A stretch of 64,000 nt of DNA from a candidate division TA06 bacterium 32_111 (GCA_001508335.1 LGFX01000004.1:1646-65645); one strand, 5' to 3'. Positions 33,769 through 62,684 are shown, counted from the stretch's first letter. Translations and numbers: made by a program. Notes: a model not told the origin generated them from the sequence alone.

Positions 33769-35586
33769 ATGACTAAAAATTTCAATTTAAAAAAAGAACT
33801 GAATTTATCAAAAGAGGAACTTATAAAGGTTTTATTTACAGAGGACAAAAAAATAGAAAAAATTTTTAGGGAATCATCCAATTTAAACGAATTGAGAGAA
33901 AAAATATTTGATCATTTGAATAAGTTAGAGAGGAATTTGTTTAATGTTTACAGTAACAAATATTATGACCGAATGCACATCATAGAGAAAAACAATGCTA
34001 AAGAGTGTCTCAGAATTTTTAAAAATATAATCAGGACTGAAAATGAAATTTTTACAAAATTCTCTGCTCTGGATACCTTACAAAAAATATATAAAAATGA
34101 TAAAAAAACTATAGATGAAGTTGACAAAGGTTTTTTGCTGGAAATTCTATATTTGATAAGGGGAATGAATGGAAAATTCCATATTAGCAATTCTTCAATT
34201 CTATCTTTTGAACAGATAAATGCAGAGTTAAGGTGTAAAATCCTTGATGGCTATTCAAAAGAGATGTTTAAACACTTTAAGAAATTTAAAAAGGGAACTG
34301 ATAAAGAGATTGTTGAAAATAGGGAGAAAGTTAAAAATAAAATTCTTGAATATTTTTCCGCAACAGAAGAAGATTGGAAAGATTATAAATGGCATTTGAA
34401 AAATATTATTAAGGATTATAAAACTCTATCAAAACTCGTAAATCTTGAAGAAGATGAAAAAGAGGGAATAAAGGAGGCTGAGAAAAAGGGCATTCCTTTC
34501 CAGATCACTCCATACTATCTCACATTGTTTAACGAGAATGGTAGAATGAAACATGATCGTGTAGTAAGGGCGCAGGTTATTCCAAGTAAAAGATATTGTA
34601 TAAATGTTGATATGAATAGAAAGCACAATATAGATATGGATTTTATGGAAGAAAAATCGACAAGTCCTATAGCGGGGGTTACAAGAAGATATCCGGTGAT
34701 AGTTATTTTAAAACCTTTTAATTCATGTCCTCAGATCTGTGTTTATTGTCAGAGAAACTGGGAGATACAAAATATCGATAATGCTGAATTTTCAAATGAA
34801 AAAATAGATAGTGCTATAGATTGGATAAAACGCAACAAAAATATAAGTGAAGTTCTTGTAACAGGTGGAGATCCTTTTACTTTGAATAATGGTTTTATTG
34901 ATTCTCTGTTAGGAAAATTGAGCAAAATAAAACATTTGGAGAGAATTAGAATTGGAACCAGAATTTTAGTAACTCTTCCGTTCAGAATAGATAGGGAATT
35001 GATAAGAATACTTAAAAAGTATAACAAAATAGGGAAAAGAGAGATTTGTATAGTTACACATATAGAAGATTCCTTAGAGATTACTTCTGATGTTCTTGAT
35101 ATTGTAAAGAAGATAAAAAATTCTGGAATAAACATTTATAATCAGCAGGTATTTACTTATTTCAACAGTTTTAAATACCAGACCTGTTTTTTAAGGAAGA
35201 ATTTAAAACTGTCAGGCATCGAACCATATTATTTGTTTAATACCAAAGGAAAGGAAGAAACTGTTGATTTTAGGGTTCCTATTGCAAGAGTAGAACAGGA
35301 AAGGAATGAGGAGGCTCGACTTCTTCCGGGAATTGTTAGAACAGATGAATCTGTTTTTAATGTTCCCAAGGTTGGAAAATCCCATTTACGTTCATGGCAG
35401 TATCATGAAGTGATAATGATTCTTAAAGACGGCAGTAGAGTTTATAGATTTTATCCATGGGAATCTATGTTGAGATTGATTGATGATTATATTTACACCG
35501 ATGTTCCAATATATTCTTATTTAAAAAGACTTGAAAATGACGGGGAAGATGTAGAGAATTACAAAAGTATATGGTTTTATTTTTAA
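33769..35586 (+). CDS. KamA-family radical SAM protein (lysine 2,3-aminomutase-like) with an N-terminal extension of about 290 aa
   Basis: Radical SAM motif SCPQICVYCQRNW, then EVLVTGGDPFTL and the rest of a KamA-like core. The N-terminal half is helical and I do not recognise it. Confidence 0.75.
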   Translation: MTKNFNLKKELNLSKEELIKVLFTEDKKIEKIFRESSNLNELREKIFDHLNKLERNLFNVYSNKYYDRMHIIEKNNAKECLRIFKNIIRTENEIFTKFSALDTLQKIYKNDKKTIDEVDKGFLLEILYLIRGMNGKFHISNSSILSFEQINAELRCKILDGYSKEMFKHFKKFKKGTDKEIVENREKVKNKILEYFSATEEDWKDYKWHLKNIIKDYKTLSKLVNLEEDEKEGIKEAEKKGIPFQITPYYLTLFNENGRMKHDRVVRAQVIPSKRYCINVDMNRKHNIDMDFMEEKSTSPIAGVTRRYPVIVILKPFNSCPQICVYCQRNWEIQNIDNAEFSNEKIDSAIDWIKRNKNISEVLVTGGDPFTLNNGFIDSLLGKLSKIKHLERIRIGTRILVTLPFRIDRELIRILKKYNKIGKREICIVTHIEDSLEITSDVLDIVKKIKNSGINIYNQQVFTYFNSFKYQTCFLRKNLKLSGIEPYYLFNTKGKEETVDFRVPIARVEQERNEEARLLPGIVRTDESVFNVPKVGKSHLRSWQYHEVIMILKDGSRVYRFYPWESMLRLIDDYIYTDVPIYSYLKRLENDGEDVENYKSIWFYF

Positions 35587-35676
35587 AGTTCCTAAAGGTT
35601 AACTTTTCAGGATTTTAAATATTCTAACTTTTTAAAAAATTTAAAAGGTTTTATCTCAACCAGTATCTACGCAATT

Positions 35677-35775
35677 AAAAACTTTCTGTCTAACCCCCGG
35701 GATTTTTGCTCTACCATAGATAGACAGAAAAATCTTGACTTTTTGCTTAATTAAGTATATATTTTAACTAAATTT
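35677..35775 (+). promoter_or_regulatory. CRISPR leader, conserved 99-nt block (copy 1) with an inverted repeat and promoter
   Basis: Identical to 54940..55038. It contains the 10-bp inverted repeat TTTCTGTCTA (35683-35692) / TAGACAGAAA (35721-35730). It also contains TTGACT (35735-35740), a 17-nt spacer, then TATATT (35758-35763). Confidence 0.75.
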
Positions 35776-35803
35776 ACAATGATAATCTCGTATTCTCCAT
35801 GGC

Positions 35804-37626
35804 GTCTTAATCGCACCATTTGTGGTATGGAAACAGATTTCCACCTGTCTCTTTCGCTATAAATTTGATTACCGTCTTAATCGCACCATTTGTGGTATGG
35901 AAACTTATTGAGATGGAGTGGATCTCGTAATAGAGATCCCTCTGTCTTAATCGCACCATTTGTGGTATGGAAACAGCTCGAGAATTTGATTTTTTCAATA
36001 ACATGTTTACCCGTCTTAATCGCACCATTTGTGGTATGGAAACCCTTGTTGCTTCTGCAACTAAACGGGAAACTATATATACAGTCCGTCTTAATCGCAC
36101 CATTTGTGGTATGGAAACTCATCTGGGTATGATTTCTCGATATTGCCTTCTGTCTCTTTTGCGTCTTAATCGCACCATTTGTGGTATGGAAACTTTCTGA
36201 CTGCTGGACCAGGAATGAGTAAGTCATCTCGTCTTAATCGCACCATTTGTGGTATGGAAACATCTCTGGTAAACTTATTAAATATTTGTCATTATAAGAA
36301 TTAGCGTCTTAATCGCACCATTTGTGGTATGGAAACGAGTCGATTGCTTCGATGTCATCACTTATCTCTGTGAAGTCTTAATCGCACCATTTGTGGTATG
36401 GAAACCCGACAGCTTTAATAACTTCTTTTACAGGCTCACCAGTTGAGTCTTAATCGCACCATTTGTGGTATGGAAACCCACCATTTATATTCAATCTTGT
36501 CTTGATTTCTACATAACGTCTTAATCGCACCATTTGTGGTATGGAAACAAGAACGCCGTTCTTGATTTAGTTTTAGACTACAGAGGTCTTAATCGCACCA
36601 TTTGTGGTATGGAAACCCACGTTTACCAGCATCACAGTATATCTCTGTGATTTTCTGTCTTAATCGCACCATTTGTGGTATGGAAACATTCCATCTATGG
36701 ACCCAATAGTCACCACTTGCTGGGTACACCTGGGTCTTAATCGCACCATTTGTGGTATGGAAACATCACATAGTTCTTCGCTTTCCCATGTTGTGCTACA
36801 TATTTCGGTCTTAATCGCACCATTTGTGGTATGGAAACGCGAGAGCGGCTGCTCGTCTTCTCTCTTTCTCTTCGGCCCAGTCTTAATCGCACCATTTGTG
36901 GTATGGAAACTTATCCCCTCTCAAATAATATAATCCATCTTTCAATCTTACGTCTTAATCGCACCATTTGTGGTATGGAAACTGGATTTTAGGGGTTATT
37001 ATTTGAAGAAATATAAGTCTAAAGTCTTAATCGCACCATTTGTGGTATGGAAACGAGAGTTTTCTCTCCAACCTCCTTCTTTTATCGGAGAGAGCCCAGG
37101 TCTTAATCGCACCATTTGTGGTATGGAAACTCATATTCATTTTGTGAGTATAATCTAATAGTGTAGCCGTCTTAATCGCACCATTTGTGGTATGGAAACA
37201 TTGATATCATTTTGTAAGCATCTCTTCTTATTTTAGAAGTCTTAATCGCACCATTTGTGGTATGGAAACTCTATTTGCTCTCATAAAAAATGCGGGGAAA
37301 TCCCGCATAGTCTTAATCGCACCATTTGTGGTATGGAAACCTATCGATATCCAGTGGTCCACAGAGAAGATGAGTGGGAACCCCCGTCTTAATCGCCCCA
37401 TTTGTGGTATGGAAATGCCAACTCATGTGCTACTGACCATCCAACTTTGTCTCTTAGTCTTAATCGCACCATTTGTGGTATGGAAACTATGGCCACCAAG
37501 AATTTCACAAACGGACGCTATGATTTGTCTTAATCGCACCATTTGTGGTATGGAAACATCCTCAATGTTGCCGTTAATAATAAATTTTACAAAGTGTCTT
37601 AATCGCACCATTTGTGGTATGGATAA
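35804..37626 (+). CRISPR. CRISPR array 1: 26 repeats of 31 nt and 25 spacers (37-46 nt)
   Basis: The repeat is GTCTTAATCGCACCATTTGTGGTATGGAAAC. Repeat starts: 35804, 35874, 35944, 36013, 36088, 36163, 36231, 36306, 36375, 36447, 36518, 36586, 36657, 36734, 36808, 36880, 36952, 37024, 37100, 37169, 37239, 37310, 37386, 37457, 37527, 37596. The repeat at 37386 carries 2 substitutions, and the last repeat is degenerate at its 3' end (…GGATAA). Orientation is + because the leader/promoter is upstream, the degenerate repeat is distal, and the 3' ATGGAAAC is a Cas6-type 8-nt handle. Confidence 0.97.
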
Positions 37627-37768
37627 ATTTTTTAATTAAACTTTTGAATAAAAATTGTTACAATATTGGGAATATTGCACTTTCAATAGGATCTTTGTTT
37701 AAGAGATAAATTGATAAGAAGATTGATTTTTATAGAACTTGTTTTCATAAAATTTAAAATAAAAATTC

Positions 37769-37796
37769 TTGACAAAATATATTTTATTGGTATTAT
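37769..37796 (+). promoter_or_regulatory. Putative sigma70-type promoter of the accessory/csm operon
   Basis: TTGACA (37769-37774), a 16-nt spacer, then TATTAT (37791-37796), about 45 nt upstream of the GTG at 37840. Confidence 0.4.
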
Positions 37797-37839
37797 TTTA
37801 TATGTTTTATTTTTAAGTAAACATTAAAAAAGGATATTT

Positions 37840-38832
37840 GTGTTTAAATCCTTTTGTTTATACATCAATTCCAAAAATAAGAAAGAGAGGGATAAAAATT
37901 TAAACGATTTAATTTCAAATATTAGGAACTATTTTTTTAAAGTTATAAAAAATAACGATCAATTTTTGGAAATCCTTGATATACTGGAAGATGATGATAT
38001 TATTTCAGAAATTGATAATTTCATCTGTAAAGTATTTTTGGAAAAAATTGAATATTTTAAAACAAAAGCGAATGATGAAAAATCCTTTAAAAATATTTTG
38101 GTCACAATTTTTAAAAATTATATTTTTACATTAAATAAGAAGAGTGAAAAAAACAGAATTTTTCGTCTTGCAAAAACCATTTTTATTGAAAATTATAATG
38201 CTCCAAGAGATATAAAGGGATTTGATATTATAGAGATCGACGAAATAAAAAATGAACCTGAAAAAATAGTTCCTAAATTTAGAGGTAACAAGCAAATCTG
38301 CTCTAAAAAGGATATGAAAAAATTTATAGAATATCTTTTTTGGGTAAAAAAAGGAAAGTTAAGTATAAATGATGTTGTTAGGGAGATTGACAACTCTCCT
38401 ATAATAGTTTCTTATGATGAGATTACAAACAAATTCAAAGTAAATTCCAATGAAGATCAGGAAAAAGAATCTGAAACAAACGAATCTTTTTCTAAAATCG
38501 ATGAATCAGAAGACTTAGAAGATAAAATATTTAAAGAGGAAATATTAAATGATAATATATTGGACGTTAATTTGGTTAATGAATTCAACAAACTTTTCAA
38601 AAATAAAAAAGAAAGGATAATACTGTTTTATCACTTTTTAAATGAAAGTAAGATAAATGAGATTTCCCAAAATTTTGATATAACTCCTCAAAATATTATA
38701 TATTACAAAAATGTTATCTCGAATAAGATCAAAAAATTCGTTGAAAAAAATCAACTTTCAAAAGAGCAGATTATAGAAATTTTGAATAGTTTCAAAAAAA
38801 ATTTTGAATTTTATGAAGAAAATGACATTTGA
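37840..38832 (+). CDS. Sigma-70/ECF-like protein with a long acidic insert (CRISPR-associated candidate transcription factor)
   Basis: The C-terminus KERIILFYHFLNESKINEISQNFDITPQNIIYYKNVISNKIKKF looks like a sigma region 4 HTH. SFKNILVTIFKNYIFTLNKK resembles region 2. About 170 aa lie between them, including the acidic run NEDQEKESETNESFSKIDESEDLEDK. It has a GTG start. Confidence 0.45.
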   Translation: MFKSFCLYINSKNKKERDKNLNDLISNIRNYFFKVIKNNDQFLEILDILEDDDIISEIDNFICKVFLEKIEYFKTKANDEKSFKNILVTIFKNYIFTLNKKSEKNRIFRLAKTIFIENYNAPRDIKGFDIIEIDEIKNEPEKIVPKFRGNKQICSKKDMKKFIEYLFWVKKGKLSINDVVREIDNSPIIVSYDEITNKFKVNSNEDQEKESETNESFSKIDESEDLEDKIFKEEILNDNILDVNLVNEFNKLFKNKKERIILFYHFLNESKINEISQNFDITPQNIIYYKNVISNKIKKFVEKNQLSKEQIIEILNSFKKNFEFYEENDI

Positions 38833-38850
38833 TATAGATAGAGGTGAAAA

Positions 38851-39690
38851 ATGACTATGTTTGTTGAAATAACTGATTTTGAAAAATATATACTAAGCAA
38901 ATCTGGATACTCTTTTAAATTTGATAAAAATAAAAGTGAAATTTATGAAAAAAAGATGATAAATATCCTAAAAAAATATTATACAGGTAATGTAAAAGTG
39001 AAAGAAAATAGCCTCTATTCAATTTACAACCCACTTTTAGAATCGAAACCAGCCCATCTTATCTTTGTAAGAGAAATTTTAAATGATAAGGTTTTAATAC
39101 ATCCAGAAAGTGAGATCAAACAAGGAATTTCCGTATATTCAAAAAAATTAAAAATGAATTTAATTTTGGATTCAAATTTTATAGAATTACCATTAATCGC
39201 TTTAAAAAATGCTATATTTATTGAAACTTTAAAAATTCCGAGATTTAATACTGCGGTTCTAATTTGTGATATATTCAAAAAAGTTGACGATGATAATTTT
39301 TCTTTAATTTCTCCTTTTCTACATTTAAAAGAGATAGCAGAGAACTTAACACAACATAAAGAGTTTTTATGGGAAATACCTTATTTTATAACAAGACCAA
39401 TCTTTACTGCTAAATTAAAAAGAACAAGTAAAAACCTTATTTTAAGTAAATTATCGGAACTTCAAAATTTTAAAGAGATAAAATTTAATGATGGAAGTAT
39501 TATATTGCTTAGTCATGAAGATGAAAAAGTAAAATATGAGATTATTAAAGGGAAATTCAAAATAAACGGAAAGGAATCAAAGCAAAAAGGCGAGATATTT
39601 GCTTTGCATGATAAAAGTTCAAAAATTATCAGAATCGAATCCGTAAAAAGTGGAGAGAATATAGATGTTAAAATTAGAGTTGGCGAATGA
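38851..39690 (+). CDS. Hypothetical 279-aa soluble protein (candidate anti-sigma or protease substrate)
   Basis: The ORF has RBS GAGGTG upstream. I recognise no motifs and no TM segments. It lies 18 nt after the sigma-like gene and overlaps the Lon-like/TPR gene by 26 nt. Confidence 0.4.
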   Translation: MTMFVEITDFEKYILSKSGYSFKFDKNKSEIYEKKMINILKKYYTGNVKVKENSLYSIYNPLLESKPAHLIFVREILNDKVLIHPESEIKQGISVYSKKLKMNLILDSNFIELPLIALKNAIFIETLKIPRFNTAVLICDIFKKVDDDNFSLISPFLHLKEIAENLTQHKEFLWEIPYFITRPIFTAKLKRTSKNLILSKLSELQNFKEIKFNDGSIILLSHEDEKVKYEIIKGKFKINGKESKQKGEIFALHDKSSKIIRIESVKSGENIDVKIRVGE

Positions 39691-41410
39691 AGAATATTTA
39701 CACTATCTTATAAATTATAATAACTTTAATCATGCTCAATCTGTTATTAAAAAACTTATATTGAATTCAAAAACAGATAAAGTAATAAATAAACTTAAAG
39801 AGATTGAAGAAATACTTAAAAAATCAAAAGAGATTACAACAAAAATATTTGCACCTATAGTTGTAAGTAATAATGGAAATGAATATCCATTTCTTTTCCC
39901 GATAGAATTATATTATAAGAACAATGAAACAGTTTTGTATGGCAAGGATATATCACAGATTATAAAAAAGGCTGTTATTGTTGTTGAAAATTATTTTGCA
40001 GAAAAGGGAATAATTGTTGATTTAAACCCAAACAAATTTTATTTAAACAACTTAGAAGAGATTGAAAATATTTTCGTTCTGGATTGTAACTCTATGGAAT
40101 TATCTGTTGCTGTTGCTCTTTATTTTTTAATTTTAAACAAAAATCCAGAGAAAATATTGTGTTTAACTGGTGGACTTGATTTCAACGGAAATATTTTAAA
40201 TGTTGATAACATAGAGCAAAAAAAATTCGCAGTAAAAAGCGAATTTAAAGATGGTTTTTTGTTTTCAAGTAATGAAAATATTAATATTAAAACTTTTTCA
40301 AATTTCGTAAAAAATGTTCTTAAACCAAAAGATGAAATTGTTGACAGCAAATTTTTGGGAAACAGTAATAGAATGATGACCATTGCAGATATGTATTTTT
40401 TAAAAGGTGATTTTGAAAATTATCTTCCAATTTATAAGAATTTAGAATTGTATCTTACAAACAAAAAAGATGTTAAATCAAAAAATATTTTGTTCATAAC
40501 TCTAATGAGATTAGGTTGGCATTATAGTCATTCTGGTGATTTAAAAAAGGCTGGAATTTACTATGAAAAGGCAAACAAGTTAAAAATGAATTTGAAAAAT
40601 GAAAATATATTTGAATATAACAGTGATTCTATAGAATTTAACAATGTCTATGCTGTTTATTTAAAAGATGTATATGAGTATCAAAAAGGTTTAAAAATAC
40701 TTAAAGAGAATTTGAGAGAAAAAAATAACTCAGGCAGACATATTTTGATATCAACAAGAGGCACTCTTGCTCAATACTATATTCATAGTAAAAATTATAA
40801 AAATGCAAAACAATATTTACAAAATAATTTATTGGAATGTAAAAAATATATGTTATCAGATGTATCAAGAACTTATTGTTATCTTGCAAAACTTTCAACT
40901 TTAACAAGAGATTTTAAAAACTCGAAAAAATATATTATTTTAGCAAAAAAGTACACAAAGTATACAAATGAAAAGATACAAAAAATATTTATAGATTTTG
41001 AAGAATTAAGATTGTACTCTTATATGGAAAATACAAAAAAATGTAAAGAACTACTAAATAAATTAAAAAAAGATTCTGAATATACACCATTTGTTTACAT
41101 GTATTTTCTTGGAATAGAACTTTTAGCTAATTCCTATTTAATGAAAGATAAAGAGAAATCAAAAAACTTGATGCTAAAGTTCTTTTTATCTATGAAAGCA
41201 CAAAAAAAAGAAGATTATTTATTATTTGGAATAAGAGGTTTGATTAATTATTACTTAACTTACAAAGATTTTGATGTTTATTCAATAATCGAAGAAAATT
41301 TAAAAAATTTAAAGATGTTTAAACAATATTTTCAAAAGTATCTTGTTTTAGACTTAAAAAATAACATAAAATCTTTAAAAGAAATGATGGAGAGTATAAA
41401 CTTAATATGA
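39665..41410 (+). CDS. Lon-like (S16-type Ser-Lys) protease domain fused to a C-terminal TPR array, CRISPR-associated
   Basis: Residues ~135-200 read VLDCNSMELSVAVALYFLILNKNPEKILCLTGGLDFNGNILNVDNIEQKKFAVKSEFKDGFLFSSNE. This parallels the Lon proteolytic core (DGPSAG...MTGEITLRG.VL.IGGLKEKLLAA). Residues ~240-581 carry repeated TPR-like signatures (GDLKKAGIYYEKANKL, KNYKNAKQYLQNNL, RDFKNSKKYIILAKKY). An ATGA overlap joins it to cas6. Confidence 0.55.
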   Translation: MLKLELANEEYLHYLINYNNFNHAQSVIKKLILNSKTDKVINKLKEIEEILKKSKEITTKIFAPIVVSNNGNEYPFLFPIELYYKNNETVLYGKDISQIIKKAVIVVENYFAEKGIIVDLNPNKFYLNNLEEIENIFVLDCNSMELSVAVALYFLILNKNPEKILCLTGGLDFNGNILNVDNIEQKKFAVKSEFKDGFLFSSNENINIKTFSNFVKNVLKPKDEIVDSKFLGNSNRMMTIADMYFLKGDFENYLPIYKNLELYLTNKKDVKSKNILFITLMRLGWHYSHSGDLKKAGIYYEKANKLKMNLKNENIFEYNSDSIEFNNVYAVYLKDVYEYQKGLKILKENLREKNNSGRHILISTRGTLAQYYIHSKNYKNAKQYLQNNLLECKKYMLSDVSRTYCYLAKLSTLTRDFKNSKKYIILAKKYTKYTNEKIQKIFIDFEELRLYSYMENTKKCKELLNKLKKDSEYTPFVYMYFLGIELLANSYLMKDKEKSKNLMLKFFLSMKAQKKEDYLLFGIRGLINYYLTYKDFDVYSIIEENLKNLKMFKQYFQKYLVLDLKNNIKSLKEMMESINLI

Positions 41411-42135
41411 GATTGGAAGTAGTTTTAATAAACGAGGGGATTAAATCCATACCTTTGAATTACCAGTATTATTTGACTTCTGCTATTTATAAAGCATTGG
41501 GAGAGAGTGATAAAGAAATTGCAGAAAAAATTCATGATGAAGGTTTTGGAGATAAAAAAGGGTTCAAATTTTTTACCTATTCTTTTTTGAAAGGTGATAT
41601 TTTTAAAGTAAAAGATAATGATCTTTATATGGAAGAAGGTATTTTTAAATGGTTTATTTCATCTCCAATACATTCTTTAATTAAAATGATATATGAAAGT
41701 TTTTCAAAAGATGGATTTGTTGAAATAAAGCATGAAAAATTTAAAATTGAAAGGCTATCATTTAAAGGTAATCCTTCTTTTAGAAAAGAGGAAGAATTCA
41801 TCTGTAATTCACCAGTAGTTGTTACAAAACAGTATGAAAATGGCAGAGTGGAGTACCTTTTTAGAGTTGATGATGAATTCAATATTAGAATCAATAATAA
41901 TTTAGCAAGAAAATATGAGATTCTTTTTGGTGAAAAATATGAAGGTGATGGAATAAAAGTTATTTCTAAAAAACAATATCCTATGACCAAACTTGTAAAA
42001 TATAAAAATATAAAAATAAAAGGAATTTATGACAATTTAATGATTGTTGGGGATACCGATTTGATACACTTAGCCTATGATACTGGTTTAGGAGAAAAAA
42101 ATTCTATGGGTTTTGGAATGATTGAAAAAAAATAA
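41407..42135 (+). CDS. cas6: Cas6 CRISPR repeat endoribonuclease
   Basis: A 242-aa RAMP protein with the C-terminal glycine-rich loop GLGEKNSMGFGMIE. Its position upstream of cas10 is typical. Confidence 0.85.
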   Translation: MRLEVVLINEGIKSIPLNYQYYLTSAIYKALGESDKEIAEKIHDEGFGDKKGFKFFTYSFLKGDIFKVKDNDLYMEEGIFKWFISSPIHSLIKMIYESFSKDGFVEIKHEKFKIERLSFKGNPSFRKEEEFICNSPVVVTKQYENGRVEYLFRVDDEFNIRINNNLARKYEILFGEKYEGDGIKVISKKQYPMTKLVKYKNIKIKGIYDNLMIVGDTDLIHLAYDTGLGEKNSMGFGMIEKK

Positions 42136-42151
42136 TTTTATAGGAGTAAAT

Positions 42152-44560
42152 ATGAATAAAAAAGTTATTTATATTAGCTCATTGCTTCATGACTTAGGTA
42201 AGTTTTTGGAAAGAAGTAAACAGTACGTAAATAATTATATCAAAAATAAGTATTCTGATATTAGGTATTCTCATCCACGTTACTCCAAATTTTTTGTTGA
42301 ACAACTTTCCAAAAAAATAGATTGGTTATCAATAGAAGAATGGGAAAATATCTCTAAAATTGTTGGTTACCATCATCAACCTAATGATTTTGATACAAAA
42401 ATTATCCAATTAGCAGATTGGTTAGCTTCAGCAGAAAGAGAAGAACAAGAATTAGAAGAATTTAATTATATTAATGATAAATTAGAATCGATTTTTTCTA
42501 ATATGTCTGATTACAATGAACAATATGAATACGATATATCTGTTTTAAATTTTGATAATATGATGCCAATGTTTGAATTTAATTGCGAAATTAATAGATA
42601 TATTGATATTTTATCAAAATTTTTAGAAGATATTGGAAAAGTTAGGGATGAAGAAGAAGTTTTGTTTATCCTTGAAAAATATTGTTCTTATATACCAGCT
42701 CAAACTCGGCAATACAGATCAGATATTTCATTATATGATCATAGTAAGTTAACAGCTGCTATCGCAATATGCTTGTTTAATGAAAATAAAAATGGTTTTA
42801 TCGATAATGCTAAAATAGATAAAATTATTCAAGAATTACAAAAAATGATGGAATTTAAGAAATTTAATAAGGATCAAGATAATTCTGATTTTAAAGAAAA
42901 TCTTTTAACATATTTAGAGGATAAACTACTAGATGAACATTTTATTTTGATTAAAGGTGATATTTCCGGAATACAAAAATTTATTTTTAATGTCCCATCC
43001 AAAAAGGCTGCAAAAAGTTTAAAAGGTAGATCGATATATATTATGCTTCTTACTCAATTAATAGCACAATATATTATTGATCAACTTAATTTAACGAAAA
43101 GTAATATTTTATATTGTGGTGGAGGTAATTTTTATATACTTTCACATAAAAGTGCAGAAAATAAATTAAAAGAAATAGAAAAAAGAATTATGCAGTTACT
43201 TTTTAAACACCATGAAGAAAAGTTGTCTTGTAATATCGGTTATGTTTCAATGAAAATAGGGGATTTTTTGTTGTCTGAAAAAATTTGGAAGGAAAGTTCA
43301 AATGAAGTAAATAGAAAAAAATTGACAAAATTTAATTACATTTTAAAAGAAGATTTTAATAAATTATTTTTACCAACTGATATATCAAAATCTATTCAAA
43401 CTTGTGATATTTGTAAAATGGAAATAAAAGAAAAATCAACAGAAAAAGAAAGTGATTCATTAGAAATTGTTCTTTGTGATATGTGCAATTCTTTTATTTC
43501 TTTAGCTGATGAATCAAAGAATGCAAAAAGTATAATTATTTCAAAAAAGACAAATTCTGAAGATAACAAGAATACTTATAAGAGTATTTTTAATGAACTT
43601 GGATATGATATAAAATTTTCAAATGATTCTCATTCATCTTCTAATCTAATTAACGTCTATAAAATAAATGATTTTGATTCTAACAAATGGATTTTAGGTT
43701 CTTTTTATTTACCTAATAAAACTTTTGATGATCTTGCGGATAAAAATAAAATCGCATATTTAAAGCTCGATGTTGATAATTTGGGTACTATTTTTGGAAA
43801 AGTTAAAAATCCTTCACTTTCAAGAATCTCGACCCTAAGCAGACAATTAAATCTATTTTTTGAGTACTATTTAATAAAACTTGTAGAAAAAGAAAACCTA
43901 CAAGAAGATTTATATATAGTGTTTTCCGGTGGTGATGATGTGTTGGTAATAGGTCGATTAAAAAAATTGTTTGATTTTTCCTTAAAACTCAGAGAAAAAT
44001 TTAAAATTTTCACGGCTGAAAACCCAAATTTAACTTTTTCTGCTGCATTAGGAGTATTTGATGTTGACTTTCCAGTAATAAATGCAATTTACGAGATGGA
44101 ACATTTATTGAAAAAATCAAAATCCATTATTTACTATGATGAAAAGGATACAATCAAAATTCCACGAAAGAATAAAATTACTATTTTTAATCAGCCATTT
44201 TCATGGAAAGAACTTGAATATATTAAAGAATTGTATGATAAATTGTACAATTTTATTGATCAAAATAAAGAAAATAAAAGAAGTATCCTTAGAAAAATAC
44301 TATTAGCCTCAGAGAAATACAATCCTCTAATAGATGGTCCAAAAGGAAATGAAATCAACAATCAGAAAATATGGAAAATGAGATATTATCTTCGTAATAT
44401 AAAAGACAAAAAAAACCTAAAGCAGAAAGAAGAAATTATTGATATATATGAAAAAATGTGGTTGAAAAATTATTATTTTTCAGATGAAAAACCAATAAAA
44501 AATCATCAAATTTTAAATGTTGCAGCTAAAATACTTGACCTTGAAATAAGAAAAAAATAA
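42152..44560 (+). CDS. cas10: Cas10/Csm1, type III-A large subunit (HD and GGDD motifs intact)
   Basis: HD domain SSLLHDLGKF...YHH. Zinc-finger cysteines CDICK...CDMCNSF. Palm/cyclase motif YIVFSGGDDVLVIG. I prefer the ATG at 42152 (RBS TAGGAG) to the TTG at 42122, which lies inside cas6. Confidence 0.92.
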   Translation: MNKKVIYISSLLHDLGKFLERSKQYVNNYIKNKYSDIRYSHPRYSKFFVEQLSKKIDWLSIEEWENISKIVGYHHQPNDFDTKIIQLADWLASAEREEQELEEFNYINDKLESIFSNMSDYNEQYEYDISVLNFDNMMPMFEFNCEINRYIDILSKFLEDIGKVRDEEEVLFILEKYCSYIPAQTRQYRSDISLYDHSKLTAAIAICLFNENKNGFIDNAKIDKIIQELQKMMEFKKFNKDQDNSDFKENLLTYLEDKLLDEHFILIKGDISGIQKFIFNVPSKKAAKSLKGRSIYIMLLTQLIAQYIIDQLNLTKSNILYCGGGNFYILSHKSAENKLKEIEKRIMQLLFKHHEEKLSCNIGYVSMKIGDFLLSEKIWKESSNEVNRKKLTKFNYILKEDFNKLFLPTDISKSIQTCDICKMEIKEKSTEKESDSLEIVLCDMCNSFISLADESKNAKSIIISKKTNSEDNKNTYKSIFNELGYDIKFSNDSHSSSNLINVYKINDFDSNKWILGSFYLPNKTFDDLADKNKIAYLKLDVDNLGTIFGKVKNPSLSRISTLSRQLNLFFEYYLIKLVEKENLQEDLYIVFSGGDDVLVIGRLKKLFDFSLKLREKFKIFTAENPNLTFSAALGVFDVDFPVINAIYEMEHLLKKSKSIIYYDEKDTIKIPRKNKITIFNQPFSWKELEYIKELYDKLYNFIDQNKENKRSILRKILLASEKYNPLIDGPKGNEINNQKIWKMRYYLRNIKDKKNLKQKEEIIDIYEKMWLKNYYFSDEKPIKNHQILNVAAKILDLEIRKK

Positions 44561-44570
44561 GGAGGAAAAA

Positions 44571-45122
44571 ATGTTAAAAGGAGTAGTAAAAACTATCAAA
44601 GATACAGGTTATGCTATTGTAACAAGTGAAAATGCAGATTATTTTTGCCGTGCTTATTTAGTTAGATCTAATAATTTGAGTGAAGGTGACCAAATAGAAT
44701 TTGAATTTCAAGAGAATAACAAACCAGGGGAAAAACCATCAATTACTAATTTAAGAATTATTTCTAAAGCTCCACGAAAAGAAAATGTTTATGATTATGC
44801 ACTAATAATTGATAAATTATCAGCAGAACAATATGATAAATTTTGTAACCTAATGAGAAGGTATGTTAAAAGTGATGATTTTAGAAAAATAACAACAAGT
44901 AAATTAAGGAATATATACAATTTGGTTAAAAAGGTGACAGATAAAAAAGGATGCAAAATGATTAGACCTAAAATAGCTTACTTAAAGGGAAGAGAACCTG
45001 ATACAAAGAAATTTATGGAAGATTTAGATAATCTTATTTCTAAAATTGATTCAAAAGAAGAAGTAAAAAGTTTTAAGGAATTTTTTGAAGCTCTTATTTG
45101 TTATGCAAAAGAAATAGAATAA
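44571..45122 (+). CDS. csm2: Csm2 (Cas11 small subunit) with an N-terminal cold-shock/OB-like extension
   Basis: The C-terminal ~115 aa are Csm2-like (ITTSKLRNIYNLVKKV...IRPKIAYLKGREP...FKEFFEALICYAKE). The N-terminal ~65 aa follow a CSD pattern (GVVKTIKDTGYAIVTSENADYFCRAYLV...LSEGDQIEFEF...ITNL). Confidence 0.75.
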   Translation: MLKGVVKTIKDTGYAIVTSENADYFCRAYLVRSNNLSEGDQIEFEFQENNKPGEKPSITNLRIISKAPRKENVYDYALIIDKLSAEQYDKFCNLMRRYVKSDDFRKITTSKLRNIYNLVKKVTDKKGCKMIRPKIAYLKGREPDTKKFMEDLDNLISKIDSKEEVKSFKEFFEALICYAKEIE

Positions 45123-45133
45123 GGAGGTAATAA

Positions 45134-45880
45134 ATGAAATTAATTAAAAAAGTTTTCATTGAAGGTAAAATTCAACTTTTAACAGGATTACATATTGGAG
45201 GTTCGTCAACTGCTTTCGATATAGGTGGAATAGATTCGAATGTTATAAAAACTTCGAATGGGATTCCTTATATACCAGGTTCATCAATAAAAGGAAAAAT
45301 GAGATCTTTAATGGAAATGAAAATGTCTAAATTTACACAAGAAACAGGAAAAGTTGATAGTAATAATAAGGAAAATTCATCAAAAGAAATCCAGAATATA
45401 TTTGGTTCAATGGCTGGTGGAAATACTATCACTAGATTAATTGTAAGAGATTCATTTTTAGATAAAGAAACTTTAGAAGCAATGATAGAAAAAGAGGGAG
45501 AGTTTAATCAATTAGAATTAGAATATACAGAAGTTAAATGGGAAAATACTATAGACAGATTGACTGCAAAAGCAAATCCAAGACAGTTAGAAAGAATTCC
45601 AGCTGGAGCGAAATTTGATTTTTCATTTGTATTTACAATGTATGATGAAAATGATAAATCTCTTCTAAAATATCTCTTTGAAGCTATGATGTTACTTGAA
45701 GATGATTATTTGGGTGGTTCAGGAACAAGGGGGTATGGTAGAATTTGCTTTAAAGACATAAAAGTTTCAGAGAAAACTGCTAAAGATTACGAAGAAATAA
45801 AGCCTGAAAAATTGTTAAAATATGAAGCACCAACATTAAAGGAATTAGTTAAATTGGTGGTCAATTATGAAGATAAATAA
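45134..45880 (+). CDS. csm3: Csm3 (Cas7 backbone RAMP, target-RNA cleaving subunit)
   Basis: GLHIGGSSTAFDIGGIDSNVIKTSNGIPYIPGSSIKGKMRSL and the C-terminal motif GGSGTRGYGRI. Confidence 0.92.
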   Translation: MKLIKKVFIEGKIQLLTGLHIGGSSTAFDIGGIDSNVIKTSNGIPYIPGSSIKGKMRSLMEMKMSKFTQETGKVDSNNKENSSKEIQNIFGSMAGGNTITRLIVRDSFLDKETLEAMIEKEGEFNQLELEYTEVKWENTIDRLTAKANPRQLERIPAGAKFDFSFVFTMYDENDKSLLKYLFEAMMLLEDDYLGGSGTRGYGRICFKDIKVSEKTAKDYEEIKPEKLLKYEAPTLKELVKLVVNYEDK

Positions 45881-46901
45881 ATTAATTGTTCCATTAAATA
45901 ATTCTTACTATGTTAATGAATTACCTATTCACTCTACAACTTTATTTGGAGCTTTAGCAAATTGCTATGTTAAATTGTATGGAGAAAATAGCTTTAATGA
46001 TTTTCTTGCGATTTTTGAGGGCAATGATGCAAAAATATCGTCAGTTTTTCCATTTATTAGAACAAAAGAAAAGGATTTACTGTTTTTTCCAAGACCCTTA
46101 ATCCCTTACAGATCAAAAGATCGAGAGAACACCAATATAAACAGAAAAAAACTGGATTCTATAAAATGGGTTTCTATGGGTGTTTTAACTAAATTATCAG
46201 AAAAAATAATAAAAATCAATGGTCAATTATATCATGAATTTGATTATCTAAATGAATGTGATTCTTTAAGTGATAATTTTCTAATTTTACAAGATGAACT
46301 CTCAAAAAATGATAAAGAGGAAATTAATAATAATTTGAAAATTGAAGAAAATGTTAAAACAAATGTATTAACAAATAGAATTGGCTTAGAAAATAATATG
46401 CCTTTTAAAATTAAATGCTATAGATTTGTAAATAGCAATGAACTTTCAAAAAAATATTCAATCAATATGTTTTTTTTAGAAGAATGGATTGAAGAAGATA
46501 AAAAATGGATCGCATCAAAAAACTTACTTATAGATGAAGGTCTTGGAGGAAAAAAATATATTGGAGGGGGACATTTTATAGATATTACGACAACAGAATT
46601 TGCAATTGAAAAAGATGAAAATAATGAATATGGAATATTATGCTCTGCTTTTATTCCAAGTGATGTTTTATGTTTAGATAAAATCGTATACTATGATTTA
46701 GGATACGACAGTGGATATATTACATATTTTTTACCAACTAAAATGAAGAAAAGCAAACTTTATTATTTCAAGGAGGGATCAGTAGTTAAAAATGGTATAA
46801 AAGGTAGTTTGATAAAACAAAATTATTATAATAAAAAAATTGTTAGATATGGAAAAGAATATATATTACCTTTAGGAGGTAAAATCAATGAAAAAGTATA
46901 A
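45867..46901 (+). CDS. csm4: Csm4 (Cas5-family RAMP)
   Basis: N-terminal STTLFGALANCY and the glycine-rich loop DEGLGGKKYIGGGHF. The gene order supports the call. Confidence 0.85.
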   Translation: MKINKLIVPLNNSYYVNELPIHSTTLFGALANCYVKLYGENSFNDFLAIFEGNDAKISSVFPFIRTKEKDLLFFPRPLIPYRSKDRENTNINRKKLDSIKWVSMGVLTKLSEKIIKINGQLYHEFDYLNECDSLSDNFLILQDELSKNDKEEINNNLKIEENVKTNVLTNRIGLENNMPFKIKCYRFVNSNELSKKYSINMFFLEEWIEEDKKWIASKNLLIDEGLGGKKYIGGGHFIDITTTEFAIEKDENNEYGILCSAFIPSDVLCLDKIVYYDLGYDSGYITYFLPTKMKKSKLYYFKEGSVVKNGIKGSLIKQNYYNKKIVRYGKEYILPLGGKINEKV

Positions 46902-47946
46902 AATAACTACTTTAACACCTATATTTATACAAGGAGATAATTCAAAAAATCTTTCAATATTTACAGATTTTATTTTATCAGACAATTTTATAAATATAAT
47001 TGATAAAAGGGATTTAGAGAATATTTTTACTGAGAATGAACATCTATTAAATATATACATGAAAGAAGTTGAAAAAGGGACAAATCTTCAGGATTTTTTT
47101 AAAAAAAACAAAATAGATATAGAAAAAATCAGAATAATAAAATCTATCCCCTATGATAAAGAACATTTTTCTGGTAACGAAATTTTAACTTTTGTTTCAG
47201 TAAATGGTAAACCTTATATACCTGGATCTTCTCTTAAGGGAGCAATAAGAACAACATTTTTTAAATTTTTAGAAGATACTCTTAATACAACAGTTAGCGA
47301 AATTACTTATGAAAGAAGAGTTAATTTTAATAATATTGAGAAAAGACTTTTTCCTAAAATTGAAAAAAAGGATTTATTTAGTTTTTTAAGCATTTCAGAT
47401 AGTAATCCATTTAAAAGTACAGATTTATTTATAAAAAGTGTTAAATCGGTAAATATTTTTAATCAAAGACATGAAGAGGGAATTCCTATAAACATTGAAT
47501 GTATTAAAGAGAATTCAACAACAGAATTCTCTATAGATATTAAAAGAGTATCTAATATGAAAAATAATAAAATATTATTAAATGCAGAAACGTTATATGA
47601 AGCGATAAATCATTTTTCTAAAATTCAAATTGTTAAGGAACTTGAAAAATTACCCAAGGAAAATCTTTTTTTAGAAACAAGAAATTTTTATGAATCTATT
47701 TTAAAAGAAATTGAAAATAATGAAAATAAGAAAATTTTTATTAGAATTGGAAAGTATACTGGTATTTTATCTAAAACAATCTTAAACCTATTAGATCAAA
47801 ATGTTAGAATTAATTTTATCAAAAATAATTTTAAAAATTTTAAAGAAAATAATGAAAAATTTTTTCCAAAATCAAGGTTGAAATACTATATAGGAGAAAA
47901 AGAAAGGTTTGACTTTGGTTGGATTGTTATGGAGGAGATAAAATGA
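46888..47946 (+). CDS. csm5: Csm5 (Cas7-family RAMP)
   Basis: GKPYIPGSSLKGAIRT and a C-terminal GKYTG...FGW motif. The gene order supports the call. Confidence 0.85.
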   Translation: MKKYKITTLTPIFIQGDNSKNLSIFTDFILSDNFINIIDKRDLENIFTENEHLLNIYMKEVEKGTNLQDFFKKNKIDIEKIRIIKSIPYDKEHFSGNEILTFVSVNGKPYIPGSSLKGAIRTTFFKFLEDTLNTTVSEITYERRVNFNNIEKRLFPKIEKKDLFSFLSISDSNPFKSTDLFIKSVKSVNIFNQRHEEGIPINIECIKENSTTEFSIDIKRVSNMKNNKILLNAETLYEAINHFSKIQIVKELEKLPKENLFLETRNFYESILKEIENNENKKIFIRIGKYTGILSKTILNLLDQNVRINFIKNNFKNFKENNEKFFPKSRLKYYIGEKERFDFGWIVMEEIK

Positions 47947-49301
47947 ACAAGGCAAAGCTTATATTTGTTACTCTTGGCCGCAGAGATTTAAGTATCGATG
48001 ATAATAATGAAGATAAACCACCGAGAGAAAAAGGCAGATATATTTTAGATAATTATAATACACTTAAACATAAATTATCATTAAATATTTTAGAAAAATT
48101 TCTTTCAAACGAATTGTCAAAAGAAAGTGAACAAAAAAGGTTATTTATTTTTGCTACAAATCAGAAAGACCCTAATTTTAATAAAGATGATACTATTTTT
48201 TATGCTAAAGTAATAGAAAAACTACTCTACGAAAAATATAACAAGAATAAAAATTTAATTATAGAAATTATTGAAATAAAAGAAAATTTGGAACATTTAG
48301 ATTTTCTCTATGATTTTTTAAAAAAAACACTTAATAATAAAATTTCGATAATAGAAAAAAAATATGAAATAGAAAATGTAGCTTGTGCCTTGAAGGGCGG
48401 AATTCCAGATGTAAATTATTCAATCTTACTTTATTTGATTTTTAAGTTTAAAACCAAGTTGAAACACTTTAACATTATGGAAGAAAAAAATAGAAAAAAA
48501 TCTTACAATTTTTATCTTTTAAATTTTAGTAACGAAATTTGGAGAGATATTGAGAGAGAAAAAGTTTTAGAATACATTGAAAGTTTTAATTATCTTGAAA
48601 TAAAAAAGAATTCTTCCAATTTTTATGTTCAAAATTTAGCAGAAACAGCTTTCAATCTTTTTTCATTTAATTTAGATGAAGCAAAGAGAATTAGAGAATA
48701 TGAAATTAAAGATATTGAAAGAGATTTTGTTTGTGAGATTCTAAAATATTTAGAACAAATAGAAGAGGATGAAAAAAATATTTTAAGAGAATTGTATTTT
48801 ACAATATGGATTTTAATTCAAAAGAAACATTTCGCCGATGCCTTATCAAGATTATATAATTTTACTGAAAGAATTTTCTTGTTTGAGTTATCAAAAATTA
48901 CAAAGGAAGAAAAAAAATTTAATGACATTGTTAGAAAATGGGACTCTATAATTGAAGAATTAATAAAAAAATATCCCGAAATAGCTGAAAAAAAAGATAA
49001 TATTGATGTTAAAAAATATAGTATACCAACTTTATCGAAAATTTTAAGTATAATAAAAAAAGATGAAAGTGAATTTTTAGAAATTTTAAAACAACTCGAA
49101 AAAATATGTAAAATTAGAAATAATTCAATTGTTGCACATGGAACAACTGGAATTTCAGAAGAGAAATTAAAGGAACAACTTGAAAATACAAATATTATAG
49201 AAATCTTAAAAAATATTGAAAAATATTATGATTTTAATTTTGAAAATTCATTATATACAAAAATTAATAACAAAATTAAATTTTTATACGAAATAAAATA
49301 A
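47943..49301 (+). CDS. csm6: Csm6-family CARF-HEPN ribonuclease
   Basis: The N-terminus is Rossmann-like, CARF-type (KLIFVTLGRRD...FATNQKD...ALKGGIPDVN). The C-terminal HEPN motif is CKIRNNSIVAHGTTG (Rx6H). The ATG at 47943 overlaps the csm5 stop (ATGA) and follows RBS GGAGGAG. Confidence 0.75.
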   Translation: MNKAKLIFVTLGRRDLSIDDNNEDKPPREKGRYILDNYNTLKHKLSLNILEKFLSNELSKESEQKRLFIFATNQKDPNFNKDDTIFYAKVIEKLLYEKYNKNKNLIIEIIEIKENLEHLDFLYDFLKKTLNNKISIIEKKYEIENVACALKGGIPDVNYSILLYLIFKFKTKLKHFNIMEEKNRKKSYNFYLLNFSNEIWRDIEREKVLEYIESFNYLEIKKNSSNFYVQNLAETAFNLFSFNLDEAKRIREYEIKDIERDFVCEILKYLEQIEEDEKNILRELYFTIWILIQKKHFADALSRLYNFTERIFLFELSKITKEEKKFNDIVRKWDSIIEELIKKYPEIAEKKDNIDVKKYSIPTLSKILSIIKKDESEFLEILKQLEKICKIRNNSIVAHGTTGISEEKLKEQLENTNIIEILKNIEKYYDFNFENSLYTKINNKIKFLYEIK

Positions 49302-49377
49302 TAAGATAAACTTTATATACATTTTTGATTCATTAGATATGCGACTTAAGTTTTATAAAATTACATAGGAGGATTTT

Positions 49378-51405: not shown

Positions 51406-51962
51406 AAGAGTTAAAGATTTATTTCCTTGTCCTAAAAATTCTACTAGCAAAATGCTATAATATTTTTTAACACTTAATTTAGCATTTTTTTGTAATAAGA
51501 AAGAAAAATCTTATTTAATCTCATTCAACATAAAATTTATTAAATTAAATGTTGAGTTTTTTTGTTTTACTACAATATTATCACAACCATAATTATTATT
51601 AAAAAGTTATTATCTATAAGCAATTTTTTATTTAATTGTCTAATTTAGAATTTTAAATAATAAAATATAGTTCTAATAAATTACCATTTATTAATTATAT
51701 AAAAACTAAAGTAAAATTAAGGTGTTAGTTGTTGTAGAAAATAATTAACTTTATCATAAAATTATAATTTTCGATAATAATAGAAATTCTATTTTTAATA
51801 TAAATGTCAAATGAATCTTTAAAAAATTTTTTTGAAAGTTTTTTAAAGAATAATAAATTAATCTAAAAATTCATAACTTGAATTAATTTTTATTAAATCT
51901 TCAAGAATTCATTCTTTTAAAATTTCCAAATATTTACATTTATTATTATAAAAGGAGTTGAT

Positions 51963-52454
51963 GTGGAAATAATATATACTGGTAGTTTGGTTGGCGATTT
52001 CATGTTTTGTAAAAGGAAATTTTGGCTTATTTCAAGGGGGATAATGAGTGATAATAAAAATGAAGATCTTATTATAGGAAAGATGATAAATGAGCAGAGT
52101 TATCCGAGAGAAGAGAGAGAAATTCTTTTAGGTAAAAATCTTATAGATTTTATAGGTGATGATGGGAAAATTCATGAAATAAAGAAATCTTCTTCATTTA
52201 TTGAGACACACACTATGCAGTTAAAATTTTATTTATACATATATAAAAAAGTTTTTGGAAAGAAAATTGGTGGAGTTCTTAATTTTCCTGAAGAGAAAAA
52301 AGTTGTTGAAGTAAATTTAACTGATGAGGATGAAAAAAATATTGATAATTTACTTTTAGAAATGAAAAAAATTGAAGACGATGGAAAAGCACCAGAACTT
52401 TCAGAGATGTATAAATGTAAAAAATGTTCTCTTTTGGCTATATGTAGGGGGTAG
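51963..52454 (+). CDS. cas4: Cas4 (RecB-like nuclease with a 4-Cys Fe-S cluster)
   Basis: N-terminal FMFCKRKFWL Cys, the core motif IDFIGDDGKIHEIKKS (D..ExK) and C-terminal CKKCSLLAIC. It has a GTG start with RBS AAGGAG. Confidence 0.85.
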   Translation: MEIIYTGSLVGDFMFCKRKFWLISRGIMSDNKNEDLIIGKMINEQSYPREEREILLGKNLIDFIGDDGKIHEIKKSSSFIETHTMQLKFYLYIYKKVFGKKIGGVLNFPEEKKVVEVNLTDEDEKNIDNLLLEMKKIEDDGKAPELSEMYKCKKCSLLAICRG

Positions 52455-52457
52455 TAT

Positions 52458-53449: not shown

Positions 53450-53719
53450 ATGTATGTGATTGTTGTTTATGATATAAATGAAAAAAGAGTTGCAAAATTT
53501 CATAAGTTCTTAAAAAGATATCTGATTTGGGTTCAAAGATCAGTTTTTGAGGGAGAATTGACAGAATCAGAGTTAAGAAGTATAAAAAATTTTTTTAATT
53601 CAAATTGTAAATTATCAGAAGATAGTATGATAATTTATTTTATTAGAGATAAAAAATGGATTTACAGAGAACTCCATGGCATCGGACTAAAACCTGAAGA
53701 TATGGATAATTTTTTATAA
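53450..53719 (+). CDS. cas2: Cas2
   Basis: MYVIVVYDINEKRVAKFHKFLKRYLIWVQRSVFEGEL. The track start is the GTG at 53441. I prefer the ATG at 53450, which follows RBS GGAG. Confidence 0.9.
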   Translation: MYVIVVYDINEKRVAKFHKFLKRYLIWVQRSVFEGELTESELRSIKNFFNSNCKLSEDSMIIYFIRDKKWIYRELHGIGLKPEDMDNFL

Positions 53720-59382: not shown

Positions 59383-59400
59383 AAAAAGTAAGGGGCCAAA

Positions 59401-60180: not shown

Positions 60181-60301
60181 AGAGAAAAAAAAAGAAATTG
60201 AAGAGAAAAAAAAAGAAAAGAAATTATTAGAAAAGAATTTAAAAAAATTAGAGGAGAAGTTTTTTAAAAAATGGAAACCAATAAAAATTATAACCAAATA
60301 A
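60155..60301 (+). CDS. Possible 48-aa coiled-coil micro-ORF bridging two genes (uncertain)
   Basis: My own translation gives MEKIKEVIEEKKKEIEEKKKEKKLLEKNLKKLEEKFFKKWKPIKIITK. It overlaps the 3' end of 59401..60180 and the 5' end of 60271..61047 in another frame, and it contains the 21-bp tandem duplication. Confidence 0.25.
   Translation: MEKIKEVIEEKKKEIEEKKKEKKLLEKNLKKLEEKFFKKWKPIKIITK
60176..60217 (+). repeat. Perfect tandem duplication, 2 x 21 bp, each unit with an A9 run
   Basis: ATTGAAGAGAAAAAAAAAGAA occurs at 60176-60196 and again at 60197-60217. Confidence 0.9.
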
Positions 60302-62682: not shown

Positions 62683-62684
62683 AA

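Follow-up and report, generated by a model that had tools for sequence, protein, structure and literature searches.

How a protease that carries none of the recognised sensors of type III CRISPR (short palindromic repeats, clustered and regularly interspaced) immunity could be tied to a type III operon is the question raised by a locus of the candidate division TA06 bacterium 32_111 (GCA_001508335.1). The locus was analysed within a stretch of 64,000 nucleotides (LGFX01000004.1:1646-65645), referred to here as the window, in which positions are counted from the first letter. Between CRISPR array 1 and cas6 lie three co-directional open reading frames (ORFs) on the + strand, namely ORF1 (37840-38832; GTG start, 330 aa, 39.7 kDa), ORF2 (38851-39690; 279 aa, 32.5 kDa) and ORF3 (39665-41410; 581 aa). 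They are compared below with 12 related loci, designated L001, L003 and so on, which were drawn from metagenome contigs and from metagenome-assembled genomes (MAGs), two of them WOR-3, one labelled Gammaproteobacteria and one unclassified. The answer towards which the available data lean, with somewhat more confidence than doubt, is that this trio is an output arm of type III CRISPR of the CalpL/CalpT/CalpS type, in which the protease bears a different C-terminal domain and in which sensing or docking is independent of the effector complex. This reading is favoured because the parts of the trio map one-to-one on CalpL, CalpT and CalpS, with the exception of the sensor domain, and it supports an earlier proposal, made in a preliminary description of the locus, that the trio follows the logic of that system as a set of protease, adaptor and sigma-like protein.

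ORF3, a predicted Lon-family protease fused to tetratricopeptide repeats

Family profiles and a structural model predict that ORF3 is an ATPase-less Lon-family Ser-Lys protease, with proteolytic activity likewise predicted, that is joined to a superhelix of tetratricopeptide repeats (TPR) and lacks a SAVED or CARF domain. Its N-terminal part (aa 1-232; 39665-40360, + strand) comprises a three-helix bundle (aa 3-53) and then the Lon/S16 proteolytic domain, in which Ser143 (40091-40093, +) and Lys186 (40220-40222, +) are the catalytic candidates, while its C-terminal part (aa 233-581; 40361-41410, +) forms a TPR superhelix of about 8 repeats and about 350 aa. Taken alone, the window protein gives weak Lon signals (TIGR00764 6e-4, ChlI 0.13, PDB 1xhk 0.02) and clear TPR matches, including ComR_TPR at 4e-6. 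An exhaustive phmmer search of 1.84 billion representative proteins, with the first 240 residues as query, returned seven clusters, six of which are 572-589 aa long and 27-41% identical; the seventh, P0015 (752 aa, E=3e-5), is a doubtful relative that aligned poorly and was dropped from the family. Word-indexed homologue searches recovered only copies of 86-100% identity, and the family is very rare.

Across the family alignment of nine sequences S143 and K186 are invariant, as are G169 and G175, and the motif T167-G-G is present. The family profile matches the LonB domain 1xhk at 5e-7 (2.4e-8 with the N-terminal profile) and the LonB domain 1z0e at about 1e-5 to 3e-6, and the 49 PDB matches at E<=10 consist almost entirely of Lon proteases and the Lon-like domain of RadA. 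The Ser and Lys columns align with the corresponding catalytic residues in MjLon and AfLon and stand 43 residues apart, the spacing that S679 and K722 have in E. coli Lon. Pfam Lon_C is detected in five of the nine members (best 2.7e-6), TPR_12 in all nine and TPR_MalT in six. The AlphaFold2 model (predicted local distance difference test score, pLDDT, 88.9; predicted template modelling score, pTM, 0.80) consists of a helical bundle over aa 3-53, an alpha/beta Lon domain over aa 61-219 and about 16 TPR helices over aa 234-580. Family profile, Pfam and model hence agree on the Lon core and TPR array that had been read from the sequence in the preliminary description, and both the Lon fold and the Ser-Lys dyad on which that description depended are found, the dyad being invariant and aligned to LonB. 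Archaeal LonB proteases (1xhk, 1z0e) are the best sequence relatives of aa 89-236; unlike them, ORF3 has neither an AAA+ module nor a membrane anchor and is fused to the helical bundle and the TPR.

As regards the C-terminal half, no SAVED or CARF match is obtained for ORF3 in Pfam, NCBIfam or PADLOC, and aa 233-581 are all-helical in the model, which agrees with the absence of these domains noted earlier. Foldseek searches with the model brought up LGN/Pins, NprR, Rap, MalT domain III and IFIT5, whose TPRs bind proteins, peptides or small ligands; with the full model against PDB and BFVD, TPR proteins dominate and no ranking of Lon domains was obtained. Fold and Pfam matches thereby place this half beside the TPR sensors of STAND/MalT and RRNPP regulators (MalT domain III, NprR, Rap, ComR), in which the binding of a ligand in the groove leads to oligomerisation or a switch, although ORF3, unlike these regulators, has no attached NTPase or helix-turn-helix (HTH) domain. 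The invariant polar residues of the TPR part (N274, R282, E324, N326, N327, D335, T364, T367, Q370, D399, R402, E446, R449 and R524) were located by combining the helix boundaries of the model with the invariant columns. Because they sit mainly on the A helices of TPR 2-6, a conserved groove ligand is suggested, and the superhelix is a candidate ligand- or partner-binding groove on which these residues would be exposed. Such a ligand could equally be the linker of ORF2, in which case the TPR would serve as a substrate-docking domain.

ORF2, a candidate CalpT-like adaptor

ORF2 has no Pfam or PDB sequence matches and is predicted to be soluble, in keeping with the preliminary description, which had left it as a soluble protein that could not be assigned from sequence; a MazF/Kid-like fold has since been proposed from its model. 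In the AlphaFold2 model (pLDDT 64.6 overall) an N-terminal domain of predicted MazF/Kid fold (aa 1-130; 38851-39240, +; pLDDT 75-88 over aa 4-130) is followed by a low-confidence linker (aa 131-199; 39241-39447, +; pLDDT low over aa 130-192) and, at the C-terminus, a small beta domain (aa 200-279; 39448-39687, +). Every one of the 16 best PDB matches of this model in Foldseek is a MazF or Kid structure (E 0.025-0.12, probability 0.98-1.00, template modelling score to target 0.53-0.62), with CcdB further down.

An alignment of ten ORF2 sequences, collected from the neighbours of Lon-TPR homologues, contains no stretch conserved enough for a pattern search of relatives. The invariant residues of the N-terminal domain are F10, E11, S18, Y56, N60, P61, V73, E75, E86 and E88, and the most conserved residues of the protein fall in the low-confidence linker, which holds P155, L159, the invariant W174, I176 and the conserved motif RP-x-x-x-A187-K/S. 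For a cut at A187 the computed fragments are 22.0 and 10.6 kDa. With the layout and size of CalpT, the modelled protein is a candidate CalpT-like adaptor or anti-sigma factor.

ORF1, a putative sigma-like DNA-binding protein

The third protein, ORF1, is best described as a putative sigma-like DNA-binding protein, short of a proven sigma factor. It contains a sigma-4/LuxR-type HTH at about aa 245-310 (38572-38769, +) and a weak sigma-2-like segment at about aa 53-106 (37996-38157, +), the two parts being separated by an insert of about 130 aa with an acidic linker. The profile TIGR02937 (sigma70-ECF, where ECF stands for extracytoplasmic function) matches four of the five ORF1 family members, among them the window protein at E=6e-5 and, as the best case, a homologue 64% identical to ORF1 at 1.6e-10 (40.9 bits). 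When N-terminal halves alone were compared with the sigma-2 part of this profile, the homologue of L006 matched at E=1e-3 and the window protein at 0.068. Pfam Sigma70_r4_2, at 2e-4, and GerE are found in three of five family members, and no match to Pfam Sigma70_r2 is found in the family. PDB profile matches of the HTH (aa 243-293) are the HTH domains of EvgA, FixJ and GerE (LuxR/FixJ/GerE type) and of YlxM, at about 1e-3. An hhalign comparison of the family with E. coli RpoE aligned only the sigma-4 HTH, with a probability of 9.8%, and was not used as evidence. Of the two domains claimed in the preliminary description, the region-4-like HTH therefore receives moderate support from these matches, and the region-2-like segment is weakly supported.

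A shorter form of the protein was observed in L007 (8183-9019), where the ORF1 homologue has 278 aa compared with 328 aa in the near-identical L006; the former may be truncated.

Comparison with CalpL, CalpT and CalpS

CalpL has the domain order N-terminal domain, Lon, SAVED (bioRxiv 10.1101/2024.05.08.593097), and its partner CalpT is a 33-kDa protein with a MazF-like domain and DUF2080, the linker of which is cut to yield fragments of about 23-24 and 10-11 kDa (bioRxiv 10.1101/2024.05.08.593097; PMC11417357). The 'Lon protease' accessory cluster of Fervidobacterium reported by Shah et al. (PMC6546367) consists of CalpL homologues according to the alignment in the supplement of PMC11417357. 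The trio resembles this system in being a three-gene set that adjoins type III cas genes and encodes three soluble proteins. ORF3 corresponds to CalpL as a Lon Ser-Lys protease that lacks an ATPase module and begins with a helical domain, ORF2 to CalpT in its size (about 33 kDa) and, as modelled, in a putative MazF-like N-terminal domain that a linker joins to a C-terminal domain of about 10 kDa, and ORF1 to CalpS as the sigma-70-family-like third protein. On the other hand, the C-terminal domain of ORF3 is a TPR superhelix of about 350 aa whereas that of CalpL is a cA4-binding SAVED domain, and ORF1, with its 330 aa and its insert of about 130 aa, is not a compact ECF sigma factor like CalpS. 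The arrangement also differs, in that the trio is ordered sigma, adaptor, protease, stands first in its operon and is translationally coupled to cas6.

Several points weigh against assigning the trio to this type. At the sequence level, no CalpL chain is found among the PDB matches of the ORF3 N-terminal profile at E<=10, the Lon domain resembles the protease domains of archaeal LonB more closely in sequence than it does CalpL, and the resemblance between ORF3 and CalpL could reflect convergent assembly and not common descent. DUF2080 is likewise undetected in ORF2, in none of the ten family members even at E<=10, and the fold match of ORF2 (E about 0.03) lies under the usual significance of Foldseek and depends on a moderately confident model. 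The ORF1 family stays under the curated TIGR02937 cutoff (best 40.9 against 42.9 bits), and the remaining six of eight N-terminal halves give no match to that profile, leaving the sigma-2 part weak. No recognised CARF or SAVED domain was found in any of the three trio proteins with Pfam, NCBIfam and PADLOC, and we know of no precedent for a TPR domain that binds cyclic oligoadenylate. Finally, in L011 a gene for a STAND/NPHP3-type NTPase (2723-3496) replaces cas6, 185 nt past the Lon-TPR gene.

A Lon-TPR type III protease was not found in the full-text literature, in which CalpL/CalpT/CalpS, Craspase and SAVED-CHAT were found and whose coverage stops short of subscription journals. Within that scope, and as had been claimed in the preliminary description, no account was found of the combination of Lon and TPR without SAVED or CARF; with its CalpT-like and sigma-like partners, it would be a previously undescribed variation on the CalpL/CalpT/CalpS type.

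Operon organisation, promoter and control

The junctions of the trio, read directly from the sequence, agree in every respect with the preliminary description: ORF1 and ORF2 are separated by an 18-nt gap that holds a GAGGTG ribosome-binding site, ORF2 and ORF3 overlap by 26 nt with GGAGAG upstream, and ORF3 overlaps cas6 (41407-42135, +; TIGR01877 at 6e-32) by ATGA. Through this last overlap cas6 is translationally coupled to ORF3. Behind it follows the type III-A effector and signalling block (42122-49301, +), composed of cas10/csm1, csm2, csm3, csm4, csm5 and the CARF-HEPN gene csm6/csx1; cas10/csm1 itself (42122-44560, +) encodes an HD domain and a GGDD cyclase motif (GGDD at aa 603). Since the GC content of the window is 29%, which makes stop codons frequent, the lengths of the three ORFs are not due to chance. 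On the other side of the trio, CRISPR array 1 (35804-37626, +) was delimited by a repeat scan as 26 repeats of GTCTTAATCGCACCATTTGTGGTATGGAAAC; its transcription runs towards the trio, which is faced by the degenerate terminal repeat.

The best candidate for the promoter of the trio and the cas genes (37769-37796, +) has the form TTGACA-16-TATTAT with an extended -10 TG and 11 of 12 matches, lies about 45 nt before ORF1, and is the top-scoring sigma-70-like site in the 17 kb that were scanned (35500-52500). In the same scan no terminator-like site was found on the + strand from array 1 to csm3, and a TTGAC(A/T) hexamer occurs shortly upstream of ORF1 in all 8 related loci whose contig reaches there. 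Because of this near-consensus promoter, the lack of a terminator-like site, the conserved hexamer and the tight junctions, the trio and the cas genes very probably form one sigma-70-driven operon, in keeping with the co-transcription that had been supposed earlier. It was also considered whether the cas operon is driven by ORF1 through an ECF-type promoter; this was rejected, as a near-consensus sigma-70 site is found in every locus that extends upstream of ORF1.

The place of the trio at the 5' end of the operon, adjoining the array, brings up another explanation, namely that it is an input regulator which uses the TPR to perceive a stress or phage cue and thereby sets the expression of the array, the cas genes or other defence genes, and does not act downstream of Cas10. 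A precedent is provided by Myxococcus, where an ECF sigma/anti-sigma pair, DdvS/DdvA, is known to control a type III-B locus (PMC6061681, PMC11506125). The similarity of the TPR to MalT/STAND-like and RRNPP-like proteins, which suggests a ligand sensor, speaks in the same direction, and so does L011, in which the protease is coupled to a STAND NTPase gene instead of cas6. The Myxococcus pair, like the trio, is genetically tied to a type III locus; it differs in that DdvA is a transmembrane protein, that there is no dedicated Lon protease and that it acts upstream of cas expression, whereas the proteins of the trio are all soluble and their operon has a sigma-70 promoter. Control of this kind is made unlikely by the single near-consensus sigma-70 promoter shared by the trio and the cas genes, by the ATGA overlap, which leaves no space for a second promoter ahead of cas6, and by a further promoter-like site of sigma-70 type on the leader side of array 1 (35735-35763). 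In addition, no alternative-sigma promoter motif was seen, though no systematic motif search was made.

A perfect 7-3-7 palindrome, CAATATTGGGAATATTG, is found at 37661-37677, between the last CRISPR repeat and the promoter of the trio, and TTACAATAT is also present in L006 and L007; the palindrome may be an operator.

Related loci and exchange of effector modules

Trio homologues in the related loci are 22-48% identical to those of the window and keep the gene order, with ORF2 ahead of ORF3 in all 12 loci and ORF1 ahead of ORF2 wherever the contig reaches far enough. A cas6 gene of 52-90% identity stands directly 3' of the Lon-TPR gene in 11 of the 12, and trio homologues are linked to type III cas genes in every related locus but L011, in line with the enrichment expected in the preliminary description. 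What follows cas6 is variable: csm genes in the window and L006 (III-A); a Csm6-like CARF-HEPN gene, an MBL/beta-CASP-CARF gene and then RAMP-Cmr2-Cmr3 in L001 and L004 (III-B); and the same two CARF genes followed by a short Cas10 (about 500 aa) together with large RAMP fusions in L003, L007 and L012 (III-D-like). The swapped modules occupy 42122-49301 in the window, 12479-20994 in L001, 12492-21280 in L003 and 12484-21469 in L012, and are also present in L004 and L007. Cassettes of III-A, III-B and III-D-like type thus sit behind near-identical cas6 genes; between L006 and L007 the break falls at the 3' end of cas6. Each of the three Cas10 proteins that were examined, one for every effector subtype, keeps the GGDD motif, and those related loci that extend far enough include CARF effector genes. 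The coupling to a III-A csm operon, as put forward in the preliminary description, consequently holds in the window and fails as a rule, because the conserved partner of the trio across III-A, III-B and III-D-like loci is cas6, usually followed by Csm6-like CARF-HEPN and MBL/beta-CASP-CARF genes, and not the csm operon.

A sliding comparison brought out that the 3' half of ORF3 (40634-41234) and most of cas6 are 98-100% identical in DNA among L006 (III-A), L001 (III-B) and L007 (III-D-like), while the window itself differs there by 8-20%. Since these near-identical ORF3 halves adjoin different modules, one TPR sequence serves different effector complexes. The flanking housekeeping genes are 65-88% identical to those of a WOR-3 MAG, in the same order, compared with just 29-48% for the trio, which by these sequence comparisons diverges much faster than its surroundings; the host itself is probably related to WOR-3. 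No relatives were found in the viral contigs that were searched.

This exchange of modules bears on a further explanation, resembling Craspase, in which the TPR would hold the protease on the Csm complex and the binding of target RNA would activate it directly, without a second messenger. Such docking has a precedent in Csx29, a TPR-protease fusion seated on the effector Cas7-11 (PMC10028731, PMC9729208). It also agrees with the lack of CARF and SAVED in ORF3 and with the Foldseek matches of ORF3 to protein- or peptide-binding TPRs. The likeness to Craspase (Cas7-11, the TPR-CHAT protease Csx29, Csx30 and RpoE) covers the TPR-protease fusion, the type III context and the expected release of a sigma factor; it does not extend to the protease, which is Lon-type and not CHAT/caspase, or to the effectors, which are multi-subunit III-A, III-B and III-D-like complexes without Cas7-11. 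The same trio-cas6 block stands ahead of all three kinds of module, and the 98-100% identical ORF3 halves of L006, L001 and L007 would require a single TPR to fit three unrelated complexes. Docking on Csm, which the preliminary description had suggested, is for this reason improbable, and its interpretation as a whole is partly supported. As a variant, ORF3 may dock on Cas6, the only constant Cas partner. The least probable of these explanations is that ORF3 frees ORF2 as a MazF-fold endoribonuclease or other toxin for abortive infection, with ORF1 as antitoxin or repressor: although MazF, Kid and CcdB are the best fold matches of the ORF2 N-terminal domain and the HTH protein encoded upstream recalls a toxin-antitoxin layout, that domain has no invariant Arg, His or Lys, while MazF/Kid catalysis depends on basic and polar residues, and ORF1 is far bigger than an antitoxin and matches sigma profiles.

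The short Cas10 proteins, of about 490-500 aa, were observed in L003 (16349-17860), L007 (about 16294-17814) and L012 (16206-17669), in comparison with 812 aa and an HD domain for the Cas10 of the window; that of L003 keeps GGDD, and RAMP fusions of about 700 aa accompany the short forms. The fusion of an MBL/beta-CASP nuclease with CARF (Cas_APE2256), of about 790 aa, lies at 13894-16275 in L001, 13964-16339 in L003 and 13839-16196 in L012; it accompanies the trio, cas6 and the Csm6-like gene in most relatives and is absent from the window.

Proposed mechanism and trigger

If the trio is an output arm of the CalpL/CalpT/CalpS type, ORF2 would act in the resting state as a two-domain adaptor that holds ORF1. 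Once activated, ORF3 would cut ORF2 within its conserved linker, perhaps close to A187, into pieces of about 22 and 10.6 kDa, and this cut would free or prime ORF1 and redirect transcription. The trigger would be a diffusible product of Cas10 or another effector-independent ligand, read by the TPR groove or by the complex of ORF2 and ORF3, and oligomerisation would probably follow, as it does when cA4 acts on CalpL; alternatively, the TPR might serve for substrate docking. We infer the cleavage, its site, the sigma activity and the nature of the trigger. Because one and the same block of trio and cas6 is used with III-A, III-B and III-D-like modules, the trigger is most likely common to all loci, and because these loci encode a cyclase-competent Cas10 together with CARF effectors, they point to a Cas10 messenger, though no known sensor fold is present.

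A bolder version of this proposal, offered tentatively and with less conviction than the assignment of the trio itself, is that a new receptor, neither CARF nor SAVED, is formed by the TPR superhelix, either by itself or jointly with ORF2. It would recognise a nucleotide made by Cas10 or, independently of Cas10, a phage or host protein ligand, the binding of which would lead to oligomerisation and cleavage in trans. It would then represent a new class of sensor for type III signalling, or else a second sensor of infection that is hard-wired to the locus at its cas6 end. To our knowledge, the characterised type III accessory proteases are switched either by a CARF or SAVED sensor (CalpL, SAVED-CHAT) or by a seat on the effector (Csx29). 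ORF3 has partners of CalpL type and neither of these two features, and the same copy is found beside three effector types. Its trigger, once found, would reveal either that Cas10 messengers have a receptor of a new fold or that CRISPR is coupled to transcription in a new way. As a small, soluble set of three proteins with a predicted cleavage site, the trio is amenable to study in vitro, and it could supply a new programmable protease switch.

Other features of the window

ORFs called inside both CRISPR arrays (35807-37639 and 55088-55597) were rejected as artefacts of the repeats, and no Rfam elements were found in the window. A radical SAM protein of 605 aa, encoded at 33769-35586, immediately precedes array 1; it is 99.5% identical in L001 and absent at that position from the WOR-3 MAG of L003. 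Between csm6 and cas4, positions 49378-51405 encode a protein of 675 aa, in which an N-terminal DUF3800 domain precedes a long helical C-terminal part and which shows 95% conservation in L006. On the opposite strand (53714-54892, -), between cas2 and array 2, lies the gene for a DnaJ-domain protein that also has a glycine zipper, and past array 2 a cluster of unassigned, co-directional ORFs (56585-63899) is accompanied by genes for an MBL-fold protein and an Hsp70-like protein.

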